A stretch of 33,486 nucleotides of DNA from Candidatus Micrarchaeota archaeon (lineage in GTDB: Archaea > Micrarchaeota > Micrarchaeia > Norongarragalinales > SBBD01), in the NCBI GenBank assembly GCA_043807785.1, contig JAZDFO010000066.1, forward strand, positions 1 to 33,486, in the 5' to 3' direction. Positions within the stretch are counted from its first letter, which is position 1. The number at the start of each line of letters is the position of its first letter. The translations under genes were made by a program, and so were the position numbers. Positions 3,021 through 31,441 of this stretch are shown one piece after another. The notes beneath the pieces were generated by a model that saw only the letters and a list, made by a program, of their open reading frames with translations, searched no databases and had not been told where the DNA came from.

Positions 3021-3557
3021 TCATGATTTTACGCGCGTGTAGGCGCTTCCTTTTGCCTCGTAGAGCAGCCTCAGGATTTCTTCGTAAAACGCTTTGGCGT
3101 TCGTTGCGACCTTCTCCGCTTCAGGAGACCTTATTTCGGAAAGGGAATACGAGGCGGCAATCCTGGTCGTTCGCGCATGTTCGAGCGTTTCGGAAAACTG
3201 GTCGTTAAGCTTCCTGGCCCTCTGCACGAATTTGAGGTATTCCTTTGGAACCCTGCCCTTCTTGAGGTAGAACGAGTCGAATGCAAGCAAGGCGCATTCG
3301 TGCGTCCGGGCTTCAAGGCCAATCAGGTAAAGCGAGGCCATGACCGAGTGGTACATGGAATAATAGCCGGCAATTGCCACCCAATCGTAATGCTTTTTTT
3401 CCCTCAAATCACTCATGGCGGCCAGGTTTTTGTGCGCCTTATCGAGGTGCTGCCCGGCAGTTCCAGTGCTCGGTTCCCTTTTCAACAGCCTGGCCGGGGA
3501 TTCCAGGCTCCCCTCAAAGCATTTCCTTAAGACGAATTCGCTTCTTTCTTCCTTCAT
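3021..3557 (-). CDS. HEPN-domain protein, putative toxin partner of the upstream nucleotidyltransferase
   Basis: 178-aa helical protein that directly abuts the MNT gene (MNT ends at 3558, this ORF starts at 3557). The YYSMYHSVMASLYLIGLEARTHECAL region resembles HEPN, but I did not verify the Rx4-6H motif position. Confidence 0.65.
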   Translation of the reverse strand: MKEERSEFVLRKCFEGSLESPARLLKREPSTGTAGQHLDKAHKNLAAMSDLREKKHYDWVAIAGYYSMYHSVMASLYLIGLEARTHECALLAFDSFYLKKGRVPKEYLKFVQRARKLNDQFSETLEHARTTRIAASYSLSEIRSPEAEKVATNAKAFYEEILRLLYEAKGSAYTRVKS

Positions 3558-4178
3558 TTATGGCTCACCTTGTGAGAGAATGAATTCCCAAAAGCCTTCT
3601 TCCCCCAGCAATACCACGCGATCCTTCCAGATGCTTTTGTATATCGGCTGCGTGTGCCAGTTGCGGGAAAGCTCGCAAAGGCTAATCACGGTTGGCGATA
3701 GTGAGTAGTTGAATTCCCGTTCAAGCAGTTTGACATTTGCTTTGAGCCTTTCGTTCGCTTTTCCGTTTTTGTTGGTGGCGATGAGGAGGTCAATGTCGCT
3801 GGAAGGCGTTGCTTGTTTCCTGGCGGCGCTTCCGTAAAGCAACGCAAATGCTATCGTGCCGTTGGAAGCCGCTTTGAGTGTTTGAAACAGCTTGTACGTC
3901 ATCGGGCCGTACGGGGTCGCGGCAAGGAAGCCTGCTTTCCTCTCGAACTCGAGCAAGGCAAGCAGTTTTATGGCTGACTCGTTTTCCTTGTTTATTGAGA
4001 AAAAAACCTGTTTTCCCCTGGTTTGCCTGTGCAATACCCTTTCTTTTGACAGTAAATCGAGGTAGTGCAGCGCCCTCTCGTGGCTTACTTCAGCGTCGTC
4101 CTCTATCTCTTTTGCGTATTTTTCCGCCCAAGGATTGAGCAGAAAAGCCCTTAACACGCGGTATTTCGGTTCAAGCAT
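3558..4178 (-). CDS. Minimal nucleotidyltransferase (MNT) with an N-terminal winged-HTH; putative antitoxin/regulator of an MNT-HEPN pair
   Basis: The nucleotidyltransferase signature LLYGSAARKQATPSSDIDLLI (GS...DxD) is present. The N-terminal roughly 70 aa look like a wHTH (EVSHERALHYLDLLSKERVLHRQTRGKQVFFSINKE). Confidence 0.85.
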   Translation of the reverse strand: MLEPKYRVLRAFLLNPWAEKYAKEIEDDAEVSHERALHYLDLLSKERVLHRQTRGKQVFFSINKENESAIKLLALLEFERKAGFLAATPYGPMTYKLFQTLKAASNGTIAFALLYGSAARKQATPSSDIDLLIATNKNGKANERLKANVKLLEREFNYSLSPTVISLCELSRNWHTQPIYKSIWKDRVVLLGEEGFWEFILSQGEP

Positions 4179-4242: not shown

Positions 4243-7200
4243 CTATGCTAAATCCGTCCCGCCAAACTTTGCATACGGGTGCAGGTCGTTGAGCGAAATT
4301 ATGCCGAGCTCTTCGCGCTTGGAGAGGGATTTGGCCAACGCGATTGCGGCAAAAGCGCTTGTGACGCACGGGATTCCCGTCTCAATGGCTGCCTTGCGGG
4401 CGGCAGGGTCGCCGCGGCCGCTGTGGCTGCGGATGCCGTCGACGACAAAAGACGCCCGGCCGTCGCAAACCATTTTCGCGCCGTCTTGCGCAGAGCCGGA
4501 AAGGACTTCGATTCCCGCAGCGGCGAGGGCGTTGACGACTGCCTTGCGCCACTTGCCGCACTCGCCGACGTACGCAGTCTTGCCAAAACGGTGCCCGGCT
4601 GCAAAAAGCGCCTTGAGGTACGCCTCCTCGAACGAGCGGCCGATTCCCATGACCTCGCCGGTGCTTCGCATTTCAGGAGAAAGCACCGGGTCCAACCCCG
4701 GGAATTTCGGGAACGGGAACACGGGGGCCTTGACGGCGTAATATCCCGCTGGAGGCGCCAGGACGGATTCCAAATCGCCGAAATAGTCGGAAAGCTTTTT
4801 CCCGACCTGCAGGGCTGCGGCAATCTTTGCAATCGGAACGCCGGTTGCCTTGCTCAAGTACGGGATGGTCCGGCTCGCGCGCGGGTTGACCTCGATTACG
4901 AAAACCTCGTCGCCCTTGACGGCCATCTGGATGTTGACAAGGCCGACGGCGCCAAGCGAGCTGCAGATTTTCTTCGAATAGGAGCAGATTCTTTCATGCG
5001 CTTGTGGGGAAATGCGGACTGCGGGGATGGTGCACGACGAGTCGCCGGAGTGCACGCCTGCCTCCTCGATTTGCTCCATTACCCCCGCGATTTTCGTGCC
5101 GGCTCCGTCGCAGAGGGCGTCGACGTCGACCTCGACGGCGTCCTCGAGGAACCGGTCGATGATGATTGCATAGCTTCCGGAGGCGCAAAGCGCATCGTCG
5201 ATTACGCGTTCGAGCTGGCCTTCGCCGTAGACGATTTCCATGGCCCTGCCGCCCAGCACGTACGACGGCCGCACGAGGAGGGGGAAGCCTATTGAGCGGC
5301 ACAGCCCGATTGCCTCGTCGCGGGAGAACGCCACCGCGCTTTCGACGGTGGGAATGCCCAGCCGCACCATGAGCGACTTGAACCGCTTGCGGTTTTGCGA
5401 CGCGTCGATGGAGTCGACGGAAGTGCCGAGCACGTTGACGCCGTTTTCGTGCAGCGCGAGGGCGAGGTTTACTGCGGTCTGGCCGCCGAACTGGACCACC
5501 GCGCCCTCCACATCGCCTTCGTTTTCCAAAACGGACAGCACATGCTCGCCGGTAAGCGGCTCGAAATAGAGTTTTCCTGCGACGTCGAAGTCAGTGCTCA
5601 CCGTCTCGGGGTTGTTGTTTATCACGATTGCCTCGTATCCCAGTTCCTTGAGGGCAAAGACCGCGTGGACAGTGCAATAGTCGAACTCGATGCCCTGCCC
5701 GATGCGGATTGGCCCGCTCCCGAGGATTGCGACTTTCTTCTTCAACGGCGATTTGGGCTGCAGGTCCCCGGGTGCGCCGTTGGCGACGGGGGGCGCAAAC
5801 TCGTAGCTGGAATAATAATACGGGGTGATTGCAGGGAATTCGCCGGCACAAGTGTCAACCATCTTGTATGACGGCAGAATTCCGTGCCGCTGGCGGAAGA
5901 ACCGGACGTTTTCCGCAGAAGTTTTGCACAGCGAAGCAAACTGTCTATCGGAAAACCCGGCGCTCTTGCACTGGCGCAATAGGGCTGGAAAATCGGGGGA
6001 CGTAATGCCTGCGGACTCTACTGATTTTTCAAGGGCGACGATTCTGGCGATTTTTTCAATGAACCACTCGTGGATTCCGGTTTGGGCGGCGATTTGGGAG
6101 GGCGAAAGCCGTCCATCAAAAAGCAGCTTCTTGATGACCGGCAGCCGCAGCTCGTTGGGCTTGAGCAATTCTGCTATGCGCTCCTGCGAGTCAAGCGCGG
6201 GAAGCTCCTTTACGCTTTCCTCGATTGATTGCAGGGCCTTGCTGAGGGCTTCCTCGAAGGACCTGCCGATGGACATCGTTTCTCCAGTGCTTTTCATGGA
6301 AGTGCCAACCGAGCGCGGGTAGCCGAGCTTCTCGAACGGCCATTTGGGGATTTTCACCACGCAATAGTCGAGCGCGGGCTCGAAGGCGGCGGACTTTCCG
6401 GTGATGCGGTTCTCGATTTGCGCCAGCGAATACCCTAGAGCGATTTTCGTCGCCACGCGGGCAATGGGGTAGCCGGTTGCCTTTGATGCAAGCGCGGAAC
6501 TGCGGCTGGTGCGCGGGTTGACCTCGACGATGAAGTATTCGCCGCTGCGAGAGTCGAAGGCGAACTGGATGTTGCACGCGCCGCGCACGCCAAGCGCGCT
6601 GATGATTTTTATCGCGCTTGCGCGCAGCATGTGGTATTCGCGGTCGCATAGCGTCTGTGAGGGGGCGACGACGATGCTTTCGCCGGTGTGCACGCCCATC
6701 GGGTCAAGGTTTTCCATGTTGCATATGGTGATGCAGTTGCCGTCCCCGTCGCGCACCACCTCGTATTCCAGCTCTGCCAGGCCCTCGAGGCTCTTCTCGA
6801 CAAGTATTGAATTGGTGGCGCTTGCGGAGAGCGCAAAGAGCGCGGCGGAATCGAAATCATCTCCCTCATGCACGATGGCAGTGCCGGTGCCGCCGAGGCA
6901 GTAGTCGGGGCGGATGATCACCGGCAAGCCGATTTTACCGACTACCGCGCGCGCAGCCACTATGGATTCCGCCCGGCCGCTTTCCGGAATGGGCTCACCC
7001 AATGACACGACGAGTTTGGAAAAGCGCATGCGGTCTTCGGCAAGCTCGATTGAATCAATCGGCGTGCCAAGCACCTTCACTCCGTATTTTTCAAACGCCT
7101 GGCGGAGCGAGACTGCGAGGTTGAGGCCGGTCTGCCCCGCCATGGTGGCGATGACGCCGTCGGGGCGCTCGCGCTCGATGATTTTCTCGACGGTCCCTGG

Positions 7201-7422
7201 GTCAAGCGGCTCAATATAGATTCGGTCTGCGGAATCGAAGTCAGTCTGGATGGTCGCCGGGTTGCTGTTGACGAGAACGACCTCTATCCCCTCCTCTTTC
7301 AAGGCGCGGCAGCATTGCGTCCCGGAATAATCGAATTACCGCCTAACGAGCTATGCTCGCTTGGTTTCGGCCGCCTGGCCGATTACAATGGGACCGCTGC
7401 CTATGACTAGTACTTTGCGCAT
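4243..7422 (-). CDS. carB: Carbamoyl-phosphate synthase large subunit, interrupted. Exon 1 is 7422..7366 (MRKVLVIGSGPIVIGQAAE), a 30-nt intervening sequence is 7365..7336, and exon 2 is 7335..4243.
   Basis: ORF 4243..7302 shows the duplicated ATP-grasp architecture of CarB (VLVNSNPATIQTDFD and IVINNNPETVSTDFD repeats) and, with the N-terminal segment added, is about 1049 aa. Hand translation upstream of the annotated Met continues as FDYSGTQCCRALKEEGIE. The missing N-terminus is found 30 nt further upstream in the same frame. Confidence 0.9.
7336..7365 (-). other. 30-nt in-frame intervening sequence in carB (ACCAAGCGAGCATAGCTCGTTAGGCGGTAA); candidate BHB-type mini-intron
   Basis: It contains TAG and TAA in frame and sits exactly between GQAAE and FDYSG. 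It folds by hand into a 3-nt bulge, a 4-bp helix and a 3-nt bulge plus an intron hairpin (details in findings). Confidence 0.6.
7393..7419 (-). repeat. Proximal copy of the duplicated carB start segment (CGCAAAGTACTAGTCATAGGCAGCGGT, encoding RKVLVIGSG)
   Basis: 23 of 27 nt are identical to 8492..8518. All four differences are synonymous third-position changes, and this copy uses the A/T-ending codons. Confidence 0.85.
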
Positions 7423-7432
7423 ATTCGGAATT

Positions 7433-8536
7433 TTAGGTATGCTCATCACCCCGCAAGACTGCCTTATGAAGCCGTTGCGCCTTAATTTTTTGAGTAAAGT
7501 TGATTTTATTGTAAAACTGACGCACATCATATTTTCGGTTAACGATAATCCCGCGCACCACTCGTTCACAATCACCAACATGGTATCGCCGTGCAACATA
7601 TGGCCGCGTCGATACTATTCCGAAGTCAGCAAGCAATTTTCGGATATCCTCCAAATACAGAATAAAATCCAAGTCAATAGAATTTGCCCGGGTAAAATGC
7701 AGGTTGACATTCCTTGCAGCGTAATTCTCCGAATAGAGCACGGAGCCGTCATCGTCGAAAAGAGCCTGCAAAAAGGCTTTCTTCAATTCCATCGTACCGG
7801 CCATTATCCAATCTGGGACGCTGAGGATGGAAAACACCTTCCTCCCACGCGGAGCGCCGGCAATTTCAAGGATGCGGCCGACAAGCGAGGAGAAACTGAC
7901 TTTGCACGTTCCGTCACCATTCGACCCGGAATAAGTCGGAAAAGAGTGAAAAACAGCCTCGACATCAGTTTTAACCCTCTCAATCAGTTGCAGGTCGCCG
8001 TTGACGTAGTCGAACTCCGCCTTCTTCGAGCTGATATTCCCGTCTCCAAAGCAATGCCCCACCAATCCTGCCAATGCAACAGATTCAATTATTGGAAAAT
8101 GCACGAAAACCTTGCCGCCTCGACTGGAAATTATTTTTAAAACCCGTGATTCGGCATCAATACAAGAAAGCCCGTGCAATGACAAGAGCTTTTTCAAAGT
8201 CGAAAGCCGGATCCCGTGCCGGCCATTTTTAAGGTGATAAAAGTAAGACTTTGAAACGCCCAATTGAACAGGCGCAGAATTGTAGTCTAGGCTCTCGAAG
8301 AGGCTGCGCCTAAACCCGTCGTCCAGCTTTATAATAAAATCTTCCGGCAAGTCAGCCAAATGTATTTCCATAGGCGCAACCGAGCATTTCAAATGCAATA
8401 AAATATCCGCACACGGATAACCACGCGGCAGAATAAACGATTTTCGAAACCTCGTTTCCGGTGCGCTGGTGAGCGCAAAGCTGCCCTCACTACCGCTGCC
8501 GATGACAAGCACCTTGCGCACTCCGGCGGGGTTCAT
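7433..8536 (-). CDS. Double-motif LAGLIDADG homing endonuclease with an HTH-like N-domain. As drawn it is fused in frame to a relic of the carB start (MNPAGVRKVLVIGSG). An independent start at Met 8371 (MEIHLADL) is plausible.
   Basis: Two LAGLIDADG motifs are present: ALAGLVGHCFGDGNI and KAFLQALFDDDGSV. The body is visibly AT-richer than its flanks. The minus strand reads ATATTTTATTGC at about 8395-8406, roughly 30 nt upstream of ATG 8371. The stop codon is at 7433-7435, 10 nt before the carB ATG at 7422. Confidence 0.85.
   Translation of the reverse strand: MNPAGVRKVLVIGSGSEGSFALTSAPETRFRKSFILPRGYPCADILLHLKCSVAPMEIHLADLPEDFIIKLDDGFRRSLFESLDYNSAPVQLGVSKSYFYHLKNGRHGIRLSTLKKLLSLHGLSCIDAESRVLKIISSRGGKVFVHFPIIESVALAGLVGHCFGDGNISSKKAEFDYVNGDLQLIERVKTDVEAVFHSFPTYSGSNGDGTCKVSFSSLVGRILEIAGAPRGRKVFSILSVPDWIMAGTMELKKAFLQALFDDDGSVLYSENYAARNVNLHFTRANSIDLDFILYLEDIRKLLADFGIVSTRPYVARRYHVGDCERVVRGIIVNRKYDVRQFYNKINFTQKIKAQRLHKAVLRGDEHT
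8492..8518 (-). repeat. Distal copy of the duplicated carB start segment (CGCAAGGTGCTTGTCATCGGCAGCGGT)
   Basis: See 7393..7419. This copy uses G/C-ending codons like the rest of the host genes, and it follows an ATG (8536) that overlaps the preceding stop codon as ATGA. Confidence 0.85.
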
Positions 8537-9063
8537 GAGGGGTTCCCCCGGCCTATTCGCTTGCGCTCCAATTCTTCCAACCGTTTGATACCAGCTGTAA
8601 AAGAATGGCGCGTGGATAGCCCCAGAGTGTGGTTCAAATAATCGAGCATGCCGGTTTTCGGGTCATGCACGGCAAGCCCGCCGGGATGTAATTTTTCGAG
8701 ATGCCGGTATACCGCCCTTAACAAATCACGGGCTATCCCCGCTTTTCTCTCGTAATCGTAGAATTTGCGAGGACCCGATTCCAAAGTCGGCTCATAGGGG
8801 TAGAAGATGGAAAAAACAAATTCGTTAGGAGGATCATTGCGCACTACAACGTGCCCCATCCGGTCCCCTAGAGTTGCCGTTTTCTCAATCATCAGCCTCT
8901 CAAGTGCTGGATTTGAGAAGAAGGCTACTGCGGATGGAGGAAGCGATTTTTCGCGGGCAAATATTGTCGTGAACTTGTAAGCACGCACAATACCCTGGGA
9001 GCCCAATCTTTCGAGTACCACCGCTAGCCCGAGCCGCCCAATGTCCTCAATTTCTCTCTTCAT
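8533..9063 (-). CDS. Hypothetical 176-aa protein wedged between carA and the carB-start relic
   Basis: This is the in-frame Met (MKREIEDIGRLG...) of ORF 8533..9159. Its ATG overlaps the carA stop as ATGA (9063-9060), and its TGA overlaps the next ATG as ATGA (8536-8533). I recognise no domain. The stretch KAGIARDLLRAVYRHLEK is only weakly reminiscent of an acyltransferase motif. Confidence 0.55.
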   Translation of the reverse strand: MKREIEDIGRLGLAVVLERLGSQGIVRAYKFTTIFAREKSLPPSAVAFFSNPALERLMIEKTATLGDRMGHVVVRNDPPNEFVFSIFYPYEPTLESGPRKFYDYERKAGIARDLLRAVYRHLEKLHPGGLAVHDPKTGMLDYLNHTLGLSTRHSFTAGIKRLEELERKRIGRGNPS

Positions 9064-10166
9064 AGCATTTTCACGAAGTCGTCGAAAAGGTAGTTTGCGT
9101 CTGCCGGGCCGCACGAGCCCTCGGGGTGGAACTGGCACGAAAATACCGGCAGCTCGCAATGGCGCAGGCCCTCGTTGGTGCCATCGTTGCAGTCCTCGAA
9201 GGTCGGCTTGACTCCCTGGGGCAAATCCTTGACGGCGTAGCCGTGATTCTGCGATGTGATGAAAATCCGTCCCGTCTCAAGGTTTCGCACCGCGTGGTTT
9301 GCGCCGCGGTGGCCGAATTTCAGCTTGTAAGTCGACGCGCCCAAGGCGTGCGCGAGAAGCTGGTGCCCAAGGCATATGCCGAATACGGGCATTTTCTTCA
9401 ATAGTCCGCGCACGGTGGAAATGGTTGGCGCAAGCAGCGCCGGGTCGCCCGGGCCGTTGGAGACAAGCAGCCCGTCCGGCTCGCTTTTTAAAATGTCTTC
9501 GCCGGATGCGTCGAATGGAAACAGCTCGACGGCGACATTCCTTGCAAGCAATTGGCGCACGATGCTTTCCTTTACCCCGCAGTTGATGAGCGCTACCTTC
9601 TTGGACCAGCCCTCCGGCTCGCGCAAGGACCTTTCCTTGCACGACACCTGCCCGACGAAGTTGATGCCGCCGTAGTCGTAGGAACGGATTTTTTCTAGCG
9701 CGCGGCTCGCAGCCTCGGCTGCGCTTTCGGATGGTTGCAGCGGCATCACTGCTGCGGGCATGACGCCTTTCTCGCGCACCCGCAGCACGATGTCGCGCGT
9801 GTCAACGCCGCAGATGCCGGGTATTCCGTGGCTCGAGAGGAATTCGCCAAAGCCCTGCGTTGACTTCGGATGGCAAGAGAACGACGAAACCTCCCTTGCG
9901 ACAACGGCGCGCAAGTGCGGCTTGGCCGATTCAAGCCATTCGCCGGAGATTCCGTAATTTCCCACGAGTGGGTAGGAAAAAGCGAGGATTTGGCCGGCAT
10001 ACGAAGGGTCGGTGACGGCTTCGGGGTAGCCGGTCATGGCGGTGGAAAAGACGAGCTCGCCGACGGATTCGGCAACTGCACCGAATTGGCTGCCCTCGTA
10101 GACGGAACCGTCACAGAGGGCCAATATGGCGCGTTGCGCACTGGATACTGGCGGGGTCGGCTTCAT
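9060..10166 (-). CDS. carA: Carbamoyl-phosphate synthase small subunit (glutamine amidotransferase)
   Basis: Class-I GATase nucleophile elbow FGICLGHQLL, the His/Glu region CQFHPEG, and 368 aa. Confidence 0.95.
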   Translation of the reverse strand: MKPTPPVSSAQRAILALCDGSVYEGSQFGAVAESVGELVFSTAMTGYPEAVTDPSYAGQILAFSYPLVGNYGISGEWLESAKPHLRAVVAREVSSFSCHPKSTQGFGEFLSSHGIPGICGVDTRDIVLRVREKGVMPAAVMPLQPSESAAEAASRALEKIRSYDYGGINFVGQVSCKERSLREPEGWSKKVALINCGVKESIVRQLLARNVAVELFPFDASGEDILKSEPDGLLVSNGPGDPALLAPTISTVRGLLKKMPVFGICLGHQLLAHALGASTYKLKFGHRGANHAVRNLETGRIFITSQNHGYAVKDLPQGVKPTFEDCNDGTNEGLRHCELPVFSCQFHPEGSCGPADANYLFDDFVKML

Positions 10167-31333: not shown

Positions 31334-31441
31334 GCCTCCGTAGCTCAGCAGCAGAGCGCCTGTCTTGTAACCCGCCGCGCCCCGGTTCCGCGCGATGGGA
31401 AGGAAAACAGGAGGTCGAGGGTGCGACCCCCTCCGGAGGCT
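31334..31441 (+). tRNA. tRNA-Thr (anticodon UGU) with a 36-nt BHB intron at the canonical 37/38 position (31370..31405)
   Basis: Folded by hand. The acceptor stem is GCCTCCG/CGGAGGC, the D arm is GCTC-AGCAGCA-GAGC, and the anticodon stem is CCTGT/ACAGG with loop CTTGTAA. The T arm is GAGGG-TGCGACC-CCCTC and the discriminator base is T. Intron bulges are UA|A and AA|A, the central helix is CUUG/AAGG (with one G.A mismatch), and the intron helix is CCC/GGG plus CGCGC/GCGCG. An AT-rich box TTAAAAAC lies about 26-33 nt upstream. Confidence 0.85.

Follow-up and report, generated by a model that had tools for sequence, protein, structure and literature searches.

A LAGLIDADG endonuclease gene and a bulge-helix-bulge mini-intron as parts of a probable composite selfish element at the carB locus of Micrarchaeota

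Results

Organization of the carB locus

The stretch of DNA analysed in this study (the window) comprises 33,486 nucleotides of contig JAZDFO010000066.1 from the Candidatus Micrarchaeota archaeon assembly GCA_043807785.1. On its minus strand, carA is followed by an orphan gene termed orfX, an open reading frame (ORF) of 367 residues, a first exon of carB, an insert of 30 nucleotides (nt) and the second exon of carB (Table 1). The ORF encodes a predicted homing endonuclease of the LAGLIDADG family, the insert has the hallmarks of a bulge-helix-bulge (BHB) intron, and both probably belong to a single selfish unit that also includes the start of carB located between them. A first-pass annotation of the same sequence had described the ORF as an endonuclease cassette inserted into carB after codon 16, bracketed by a duplication of the start of this gene whose silent differences might have destroyed the target of the enzyme.

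Properties of the endonuclease

The ORF (8536-7433, minus strand) is intact and terminates with TAA at 7435-7433, 10 nt ahead of the ATG at 7422, which is where the first-pass annotation had placed its end. The profile search and structure prediction proposed at that stage both point to the LAGLIDADG family: the translation scores 26 bits against the Pfam profile LAGLIDADG_3 (cutoff 22.5), together with a weak match to the XRE-type helix-turn-helix (HTH) profile HTH_31, and an AlphaFold2 model based on 18 homologs shows a confidently predicted LAGLIDADG fold, with a predicted local distance difference test score (pLDDT) of 86 overall and above 90 for residues 56–365. Residues 1–52, including the carB-like peptide at the N-terminus, are disordered in this model. 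The fold contains the two-fold related alpha-beta-beta-alpha-beta-beta-alpha core, and in Foldseek comparisons with the PDB (E 5e-10 to 1e-5) it matches the endonuclease domains of the TliVMA and PI-SceI inteins, I-Tsp061I and I-DmoI, with further matches to WhiA (8dy9_I, 3hyi) and the bI3 maturase. At the level of sequence, a PDB search with the family profile returned only weak HTH and PI-SceI matches, and the NCBIfam matches of the protein are intein-containing archaeal proteins.

Both LAGLIDADG motifs (GHCFGD165G and LFDDD263GS) are invariant in the family alignment of 18 homologs, with the codon of the catalytic-position residue Asp 165 located at 8042-8044. Since this invariance persists at a mean identity of 37%, it argues for retained catalysis. 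The ORF is AT-richer than its neighbours, with a GC content (GC) of 0.42–0.53 compared to about 0.60 in carA and carB, so that the earlier assignment of an AT-richer ORF with two LAGLIDADG motifs is confirmed by the profile match, the motifs, the predicted structure and the base composition. Upstream of Met 56 (8371), relatives share a motif of the form (S/A)PE..R(N/K), and because homology to them continues there, the segment between the carB-like peptide and this methionine is not a mere spacer. A putative internal promoter had been placed ahead of this methionine in the first-pass annotation; the N-terminal extension is only weakly conserved in the closest relatives and predicted to be disordered. 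As judged from its sequence, the protein is an intact monomeric double-motif LAGLIDADG homing endonuclease with predicted catalytic activity. An intein was considered as alternative and rejected, in line with the first-pass annotation, since the protein shows no match to a Hint domain and contains an HTH at its N-terminus, the ORF ends with a stop codon and carB resumes in a different frame at a new start.

The carB mini-intron

The RNA of the insert and its flanks can be folded into a BHB motif, with a central helix formed by GCCG (7371-7368) and CGGU (7341-7338), bulges AA^A and AA^U (the caret denoting the cut) and an inner hairpin of the sequence GCGAGC-AUA-GCUCGU. Cleavage after the second nucleotide of each bulge restores the frame in GCC GAA/UUC GAU and leads to the intron-less junction ...GGCCAGGCGGCCGAATTCGATTATTCCGG... 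between exon 1 and exon 2. Inserts of 20–34 nt are found at the same junction (..AAE/FDYSG.. or ..AGE/FDFSG..) in all endonuclease-bearing carB genes (16/16). They share a general register, in which nucleotides –6 to –3 of exon 1 pair with nucleotides –6 to –3 of the intron and the 3-nt bulges have the form AA^N and NN^U; sequence and length of the inner hairpin are free, and the outer helix between the exons contains only about one base pair, as in the relaxed form of the motif. A cut after the second bulge nucleotide generates GAA/UUC (AAE-FDYSG) at each of the 16 loci.

The proposed structure is strongly reflected in covariation. In 15 loci aligned without gaps, 93% of the cells are paired with 37 double-sided changes, which was reached in none of 500 shuffles, and slid controls gave values of 29–47%. 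The central helix is paired in 95% of the cells with compensatory changes, and the inner helix in 92% with covariation at all five pairs. Changes in the central helix go along with synonymous or conservative changes of exon codons, as in the pairs GCCG/CGGC, GCGG/CCGC, GCUG/CAGU and GGCG/CGCU. Since the lengths of the inserts are mostly not multiples of three and in-frame stops are found in 15 of 16, their removal must be obligatory. The insert is hence best described as a canonical BHB intron whose splicing is predicted from its conserved structure. In L021 (~5150-5225), the motif is shifted by 1 nt (CUGA/UCAG with an extra unpaired A) and AEFDY is still restored; this is the sole mini-intron without an in-frame stop.

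Other interpretations of the insert were rejected. Translational bypass would require a landing codon matching the GAA take-off codon, and the codons preceding TTC (TAA, AAA, CAT, TAC, TTA) do not match, whereas the BHB covaries. A register with bulges located 5' of the central helix, inspected by hand, gave no pairing in three cut registers. Finally, a large BHB intron joining the upstream copy of the carB start to exon 2 is incompatible with the fact that direct repeats cannot provide a complementary helix; moreover, the copy in the window is 27 nt short and the one in L006 has lost the helix sequence.

The insertion point coincides with the center of the 8-bp palindrome CGAA/TTCG in universally conserved coding sequence. 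The endonuclease is not intron-encoded, as a distance of 67 nt that includes exon 1 separates the end of its ORF from the downstream intron, and the same layout is found at all loci. The first-pass annotation had correctly placed the ORF outside of the mini-intron; it had treated the latter as unrelated, yet the co-occurrence of the two is perfect.

Synteny and co-occurrence in the endonuclease family

The endonuclease family includes about 16 distinct loci with 32–59% identity and about 17 distinct members. All homologs of at least 32% identity with readable context (16 loci with DNA and the P0018 gene map) are encoded directly upstream of carB. This also applies to P0018, where the order carA-NUDIX-GDPD-NUDIX-HEG-carB places the homing endonuclease gene (HEG) at carB even though carA is not adjacent. 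The physical tie to the 5' end of carB that the first-pass annotation had postulated was thus recovered wherever the context could be read, contrary to the refuting case considered there that the gene would never be found next to carB in other genomes. Remote paralogues with no more than 33% identity (L020, L023-L030) are not located next to carB. Two of them (L020 1803-3125 and L023 3866-5188, 30–33%) combine an HTH with a double LAGLIDADG core containing both motifs in intact form and carry two additional C-terminal winged-helix-like repeats.

The element is usually found between carA and carB, and about 13 of 17 homologs contain no upstream carB fragment. An insertion after codon 16 therefore describes a relic of certain lineages rather than the insertion site of the element, and in the window the fusion point is found after codon 15 (GSG/S). 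Similarly, of the claim that the endonuclease splits carB and brings a new start, the second part holds, as start, ribosome-binding site and exon 1 belong to the unit, whereas its normal place is between carA and carB. Consistently, a carB Shine-Dalgarno motif resembling GGAGGTGA is located in the 3' end of the endonuclease ORF at nearly all loci. In L009 726-1775 (P0012) and P0008, this ORF continues in frame through exon 1 of carB and meets its first stop inside the mini-intron. After splicing, the mRNA would lack this stop of the endonuclease and could contain an endonuclease-CarB fusion frame.

The empty alleles that the first-pass annotation had suggested to look for in related genomes were found, and among the matches listed all of them lack the mini-intron. 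Endonuclease-free loci with an uninterrupted GQAAEFDYSG sequence are present in at least six Micrarchaeota species-representatives (L031-L035, L057) and four other archaea, and the junction is likewise uninterrupted in a further Micrarchaeota CarB protein (P0023). Within the same matches, mini-intron and endonuclease are both present at 16 of 16 loci and both absent from the 10 archaeal ones, and no locus contains only one of the two. A protein search with carB for intron-only alleles retrieved mostly partial bacterial CarB sequences, none starting at FDYSG, and the intron-less Micrarchaeota protein P0023.

When the first 350 residues encoded by exon 2 are arranged in a neighbour-joining tree, Micrarchaeota with and without the endonuclease interleave. 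The Micrarchaeota subset compared contains five endonuclease-bearing carB genes, and the carB nearest to each of them among the matches listed is endonuclease-free; in the case of L002 (bearing) and L034 (free), the two genes are 86.9% identical. The distribution is thus sporadic at a single conserved site. Presence or absence as a unit requires the replacement of alleles by recombination, since exon 1 is located between the two parts and a single deletion could not remove both, and such replacement matches a homing cycle in which both empty and occupied alleles occur.

Duplication of the carB start and fusions in other homologs

In the window, the segment coding for RKVLVIGSG is found twice on the minus strand, at 8518-8492 (cgcaaggtgcttgtcatcggcagcggt) and at 7419-7393 (cgcaaagtactagtcataggcagcggt), with 23 of 27 nt identical and all four differences being synonymous and at third positions. 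This duplication had been recognized in the first-pass annotation, as had the overlap of the upstream ATG (8536-8534) with the stop of orfX (ATGA, 8536-8533), which suggests translational coupling to orfX, and the host-like G/C-ending codons of the upstream copy, whose GC at third codon positions (GC3) is 12/15. All of these observations were reproduced. A repeat search extends the similarity to 29 nt (7393-7421 / 8492-8520, 25/29 or 86% identical). For any one 27-mer, the number of chance matches at the level of 23/27 calculated for 2 x 33 kb is about 5e-6. With 27–28% of the single-base changes in the repeat codons being synonymous, four synonymous changes out of four correspond to p ~0.005–0.007 under neutrality. 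The GC3 of the downstream exon 1 is 0.56 compared to 0.76 in exon 2, and the longest exact run common to both carB-start regions measures 9 nt.

The variable N-terminal tips of the two copies differ strongly (MNPAGV.. and (MSIPKIPN)M..). Because the tips have diverged, whereas the conserved motif differs only synonymously, the copies look like two orthologous carB 5' ends that diverged under selection and were brought together, which speaks against an in-situ duplicate that drifted or was subsequently recoded, as had been proposed in the first-pass annotation. The pattern also differs from the target-site duplication of a transposon, as the copies span 15–25 codons depending on the lineage and differ synonymously and in the variable tip.

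A carB-like N-terminus is found in 4 of the about 17 distinct family members (Table 1), with the junctions of P0003 and P0018 known at the protein level only. The closest relatives of the window and P0003 (L001-L003) and of P0018 (L016-L018) contain no fusion, and owing to these fusion-free sister lineages the fusions look independent. On the carB side, the junctions are located at or before the intron insertion site (at 0, –2, –9 and –9 codons) and none extends into exon 2, and on the endonuclease side they are found near the native N-terminus. Extra genes are located between carA and carB in both the window and P0018. In L006, the upstream copy (3991-4065, compared to 5292-5366) contains exon 1 with its full 25 codons and thus reaches the insertion site. 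About 12 nt of the intron may be similar as well, with 8/12 identical; should this be real, the event would have involved an allele already carrying the intron. From the location of these junctions, we infer that the upstream fragments may be relics of the 5' end of the resident carB, which remained when the element integrated imprecisely following a break at the intron site.

Further features of the window

Upstream of 7422, the carB frame continues without a stop (..GVMSIPKIPNMRKV..), which makes ATG 7446 and GTG 7449 potential alternative starts. Searches for homologs of orfX retrieved none in 5.8e9 proteins and no match in Pfam or NCBIfam. The gene is missing from all related carA-HEG-carB loci and its GC of about 0.50 is below that of carA and carB. 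The closest relatives of both carB and the endonuclease are found in Candidatus Micrarchaeota assemblies. Exon 2 of carB is 55–61% identical to carB of Chloroflexota, Dormibacterota and Bacillota, which is about as close as to many archaeal carB genes, and identities across the endonuclease-bearing set range from 47 to 68%; these values hint at a complex history of carB in DPANN archaea.

At a distance from the carB locus, a tRNA gene of 108 nt with an intron (31334-31441, plus strand) is detected by Rfam with 51.7 bits and was missed by ARAGORN; it supports an archaeal origin of the DNA and an active BHB splicing system. Just downstream of carB, the adjacent minus-strand genes of a HEPN-domain protein (3021-3557) and a nucleotidyltransferase (3558-4178) constitute a typical HEPN/MNT toxin-antitoxin-like module (3021-4178).

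Table 1. Coordinates of features at the carB locus of the window and carB-start fusions in the endonuclease family (the slash marks the fusion point).
Feature	Positions	Strand	Remarks
carA	9060..10166	-	context gene
orfX	8533..9063	-	176-residue orphan between carA and the upstream carB relic; marker of the resident arrangement carA-orfX-carB
Upstream carB-start relic	8492..8536	-	codons 1–15 of the endonuclease ORF, MNPAGVRKVLVIGSG; predicted structure disordered
N-terminal extension of the endonuclease, residues 16–55	8372..8491	-	weakly conserved with the closest relatives L001-L003; pLDDT <50
Endonuclease core, Met 56 to TAA	7433..8371	-	XRE-type HTH followed by monomeric double LAGLIDADG
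LAGLIDADG motif 1, residues 155–166	8039..8074	-	LAGLVGHCFGDG; G160, G164 and D165 invariant in 18 homologs
LAGLIDADG motif 2, residues 255–265	7742..7774	-	FLQALFDDDGS; F260, D261–D263, G264 and S265 invariant in 18 homologs
carB translation-initiation region	7423..7454	-	Shine-Dalgarno-like GGGGTGAT (7452-7445), in-frame starts GTG 7449 and ATG 7446; overlaps the 3' end of the endonuclease ORF
carB exon 1	7366..7422	-	MRKVLVIGSGPIVIGQAAE; downstream repeat copy, functional start
BHB mini-intron in carB, between codons E19 and F20	7336..7365	-	30 nt; in-frame TAG and TAA
carB exon 2	4243..7335	-	FDYSGTQ... to stop
Fusion in the window			MNPAGVRKVLVIGSG/SEGS; 15 codons of carB start
Fusion in P0003			..NKVLVIGSGPVVIGQA/DDSL
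Fusion in P0017/L006			MPKREDIRKALIIGSHGNAIPSALE/TVEN; 13/25 identical to its own exon 1, reached in 0 of 100000 shuffles
Fusion in P0018			MSIPKKVLLLGSG/APSC

Discussion

Our analysis describes an endonuclease gene that adjoins its presumed target gene and is found strictly together with a small insert that appears to be removable, which places it with composite cassettes as far as can be deduced from sequence comparison. We consider it probable that the HTH-LAGLIDADG gene, the ribosome-binding site, start and exon 1 of carB and the 30-nt BHB mini-intron together constitute a composite selfish element, and that the duplicated start in the window is a relic of the resident allele. In the proposed mechanism, the endonuclease would recognize the uninterrupted and very conserved carB sequence around CGAA/TTCG and cut at or near this site. 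The mini-intron would split the recognition site and thus protect the carrier genome, at little cost if the host tRNA-splicing endonuclease and ligase remove it from the mRNA. The splicing endonuclease of Micrarchaeota is of the epsilon2 type with broad specificity (PMC5829648, PMC12397907). A cleaved empty allele would then be repaired by copying intron, exon 1 and endonuclease gene as one unit. By analogy with MobA and gene 60 of phage T4, the mini-intron is more likely to be the determinant of immunity than the four synonymous changes to which the first-pass annotation had assigned this role.

In the window, the break would have occurred at the junction between E19 and F20, with homologous repair on the side of exon 2. 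On the left-hand side, where homology is short and limited to exon 1, the end may have been trimmed by about 27 nt before the endonuclease gene that came in was attached to it in frame by its 5' end; such a join would have been non-homologous since orfX has no counterpart in the donor. As a consequence, the first 15 codons of the resident gene would have been left as an N-terminal tag of an endonuclease that uses the old carB start, and expression of carB would now depend on the start and exon 1 that arrived with the element. In-frame products would survive because the endonuclease remains expressed from the old carB start.

Several observations weigh against this proposal. Homologous repair should often generate intron-only alleles, as exon 1 flanks the break, and none was seen in what is a small sample, and the sample of empty alleles is limited as well. 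The tree of the endonuclease is largely congruent with that of carB (r = 0.86) and its GC tracks that of the host, although always at a lower value. These properties indicate that the element has been resident in these lineages for long, and long vertical residence combined with loss fits the data at least as well as frequent horizontal homing. The contrast in GC3 between the two carB copies rests on only 15–18 codons. Three of the four fusion junctions are found near the same GSG codons, which would be odd for random resection, and end joining is, to our knowledge, poorly documented in these archaea. Finally, the spacing of 23 nt between GGGGTGAT and ATG 7422 is atypical compared to 3–8 nt in relatives, and the motif overlaps the in-frame codons ATG 7446 and GTG 7449, so that the start of carB is uncertain.

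Among the alternatives, the protein could be a domesticated LAGLIDADG-HTH factor that is inherited vertically and serves either as WhiA-like regulator of carB or as helper in the splicing of the mini-intron. The HTH domain and the Foldseek matches to WhiA and the bI3 maturase would fit such a role, as would the congruent trees, the GC ameliorated towards the host and the strictly conserved position, and a splicing helper would also explain the co-occurrence with the intron. We nevertheless regard domestication as improbable, since the aspartates at both catalytic positions have stayed invariant in a family with a mean identity of 37%, close relatives that have carAB lack the protein, which hence is not needed for carB, a canonical BHB requires no maturase, and the repeated in-frame capture of carB starts points to repeated integration. 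The comparison with WhiA (DUF199) is instructive, as an HTH accompanies a double LAGLIDADG fold in both proteins. WhiA carries its HTH at the C-terminus and has lost the catalytic acidic residues. In the protein described here, the HTH is N-terminal, both aspartates are invariant and the distribution is patchy instead of universal; with these aspartates and its absence from close relatives, it was not assigned to the class of WhiA-like domesticated regulators.

The model of the first-pass annotation, in which the gene is inserted inside carB after codon 15 or 16, with a target in the RKVLVIGSG segment and immunity due to synonymous recoding, draws on a real duplication with purely synonymous differences and on three fusion junctions at GSG codons. 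We find it quite improbable in view of the about 13 of 17 members that lie between carA and carB without upstream fragment, the copies in L006 and P0003 that run to the intron insertion site, and the perfect co-occurrence with the mini-intron, which this model leaves unexplained; in the case of T4 MobA, it is, according to the preprint describing it, the insert and not flanking polymorphisms that confers protection (bioRxiv 10.1101/2022.08.31.505936). Even less probable appears an ancestral ORF encoded within a long BHB intron at the junction between E and F, which a later duplication of exon 1 would have moved out, leaving ancestral remnants that decayed in most lineages. It is recommended by the ORFs of L006 and P0003, which run in frame from a complete or nearly complete exon 1 across the insertion site in a layout typical of intron ORFs, and by the LAGLIDADG genes found in BHB introns of archaeal rRNA (PMC2738675). 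However, the copies in the window and P0003 differ only synonymously as expected for purifying selection but not for an old unselected remnant, each fusion has sister lineages without it, the upstream copy in L006 has lost the sequence of the central helix and could not splice, and more steps are needed. An assembly chimera of two strains, with the arrangements carA-orfX-carB and carA-HEG-carB, could be suspected in what is probably a metagenome contig with two copies of distinct codon style; it is barely credible because the longest shared exact run is too short to be joined by an assembler, the junction generates an in-frame ORF and analogous fusions are found in three independent assemblies from other samples.

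The composite element favoured here resembles a system of phage T4, where MobA and the 50-nt bypass insert of gene 60 form one cassette in which the insert blocks self-cleavage, as stated in bioRxiv 10.1101/2022.08.31.505936 (citing Bonocora et al. 2011). The two systems share a free-standing endonuclease gene next to or inside a host gene that is essential and conserved, a short insert that is non-coding, contains a stop and a hairpin, is found a few dozen bases downstream and always accompanies the endonuclease, and an element that carries its own copy of flanking host-gene sequence with a new start for the downstream part. They differ in the nuclease family (LAGLIDADG as opposed to HNH in MobA) and the host (an archaeon as opposed to a phage). 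The archaeal insert would be removed as RNA and not skipped by the ribosome, and it lacks the matched take-off and landing codons of gene 60; the carB protein is not split in two, with an upstream relic (15 codons in the window) confined to some lineages; and whereas phage survivors with only the bypass exist, no intron-only allele was found among the matches listed.

A second parallel is collaborative homing, in which free-standing endonucleases are paired with group I introns devoid of ORFs, as described for the psbA intron of S-PM2 with F-CphI (PMC6083498) and for T4 mobE/I-TevIII (PMC2790892; reviewed in PMC3984707). In both cases the endonuclease gene is located outside of an adjoining ORF-less intron and the presumed target is the insertion site in intron-less alleles, and in the archaeal case too the intron would provide immunity and both would move together. 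The distinction lies in the intron, a BHB intron of 20–34 nt spliced by proteins instead of a self-splicing ribozyme, and in the endonuclease family and domain of life. With the BHB introns of archaeal rRNA that encode I-DmoI, I-Tsp061I and I-PorI, the element shares the fold of the enzyme, the type of intron and presumably the splicing machinery, but its ORF is located outside of the intron, the host gene codes for a protein and the enzyme contains an additional N-terminal XRE-type HTH. Likewise, the BHB mini-introns of 16–44 nt in cbf5 of Crenarchaeota interrupt a protein-coding gene and show patchy gain and loss, although without an endonuclease (PMC2738675), whereas the carB mini-intron is accompanied by a dedicated endonuclease gene located 70–110 nt upstream. 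In the full-text literature searched, we found no description of an element combining this endonuclease with the carB mini-intron.

The link between a mini-intron and a dedicated endonuclease gene located 70–110 nt away suggests a concrete and testable mechanism. In annotations, every carB gene of this type is mis-called as truncated or split, and endonuclease ORFs are sometimes fused to exon 1 of carB. As a possible application, the protein might serve as a new scaffold that adds an HTH domain to a LAGLIDADG enzyme and targets a carB sequence conserved across all life. If the proposed mechanism is correct, the in-frame fusions to carB starts would be footprints of end-joined homing and would place the double-strand break where the intron is inserted. 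We assign about even chances to the broader proposal that DPANN archaea harbour, in the form of this unit, an active composite mobile element with the BHB mini-intron as its immunity module; it would be the first mobile BHB intron of an mRNA and the first case of collaborative homing in archaea. Archaea would then have converged with T4, in its pairing of MobA with the gene 60 bypass, and with cyanophages, in their pairing of F-CphI with the psbA intron, by use of another nuclease family and another way of removing the insert.

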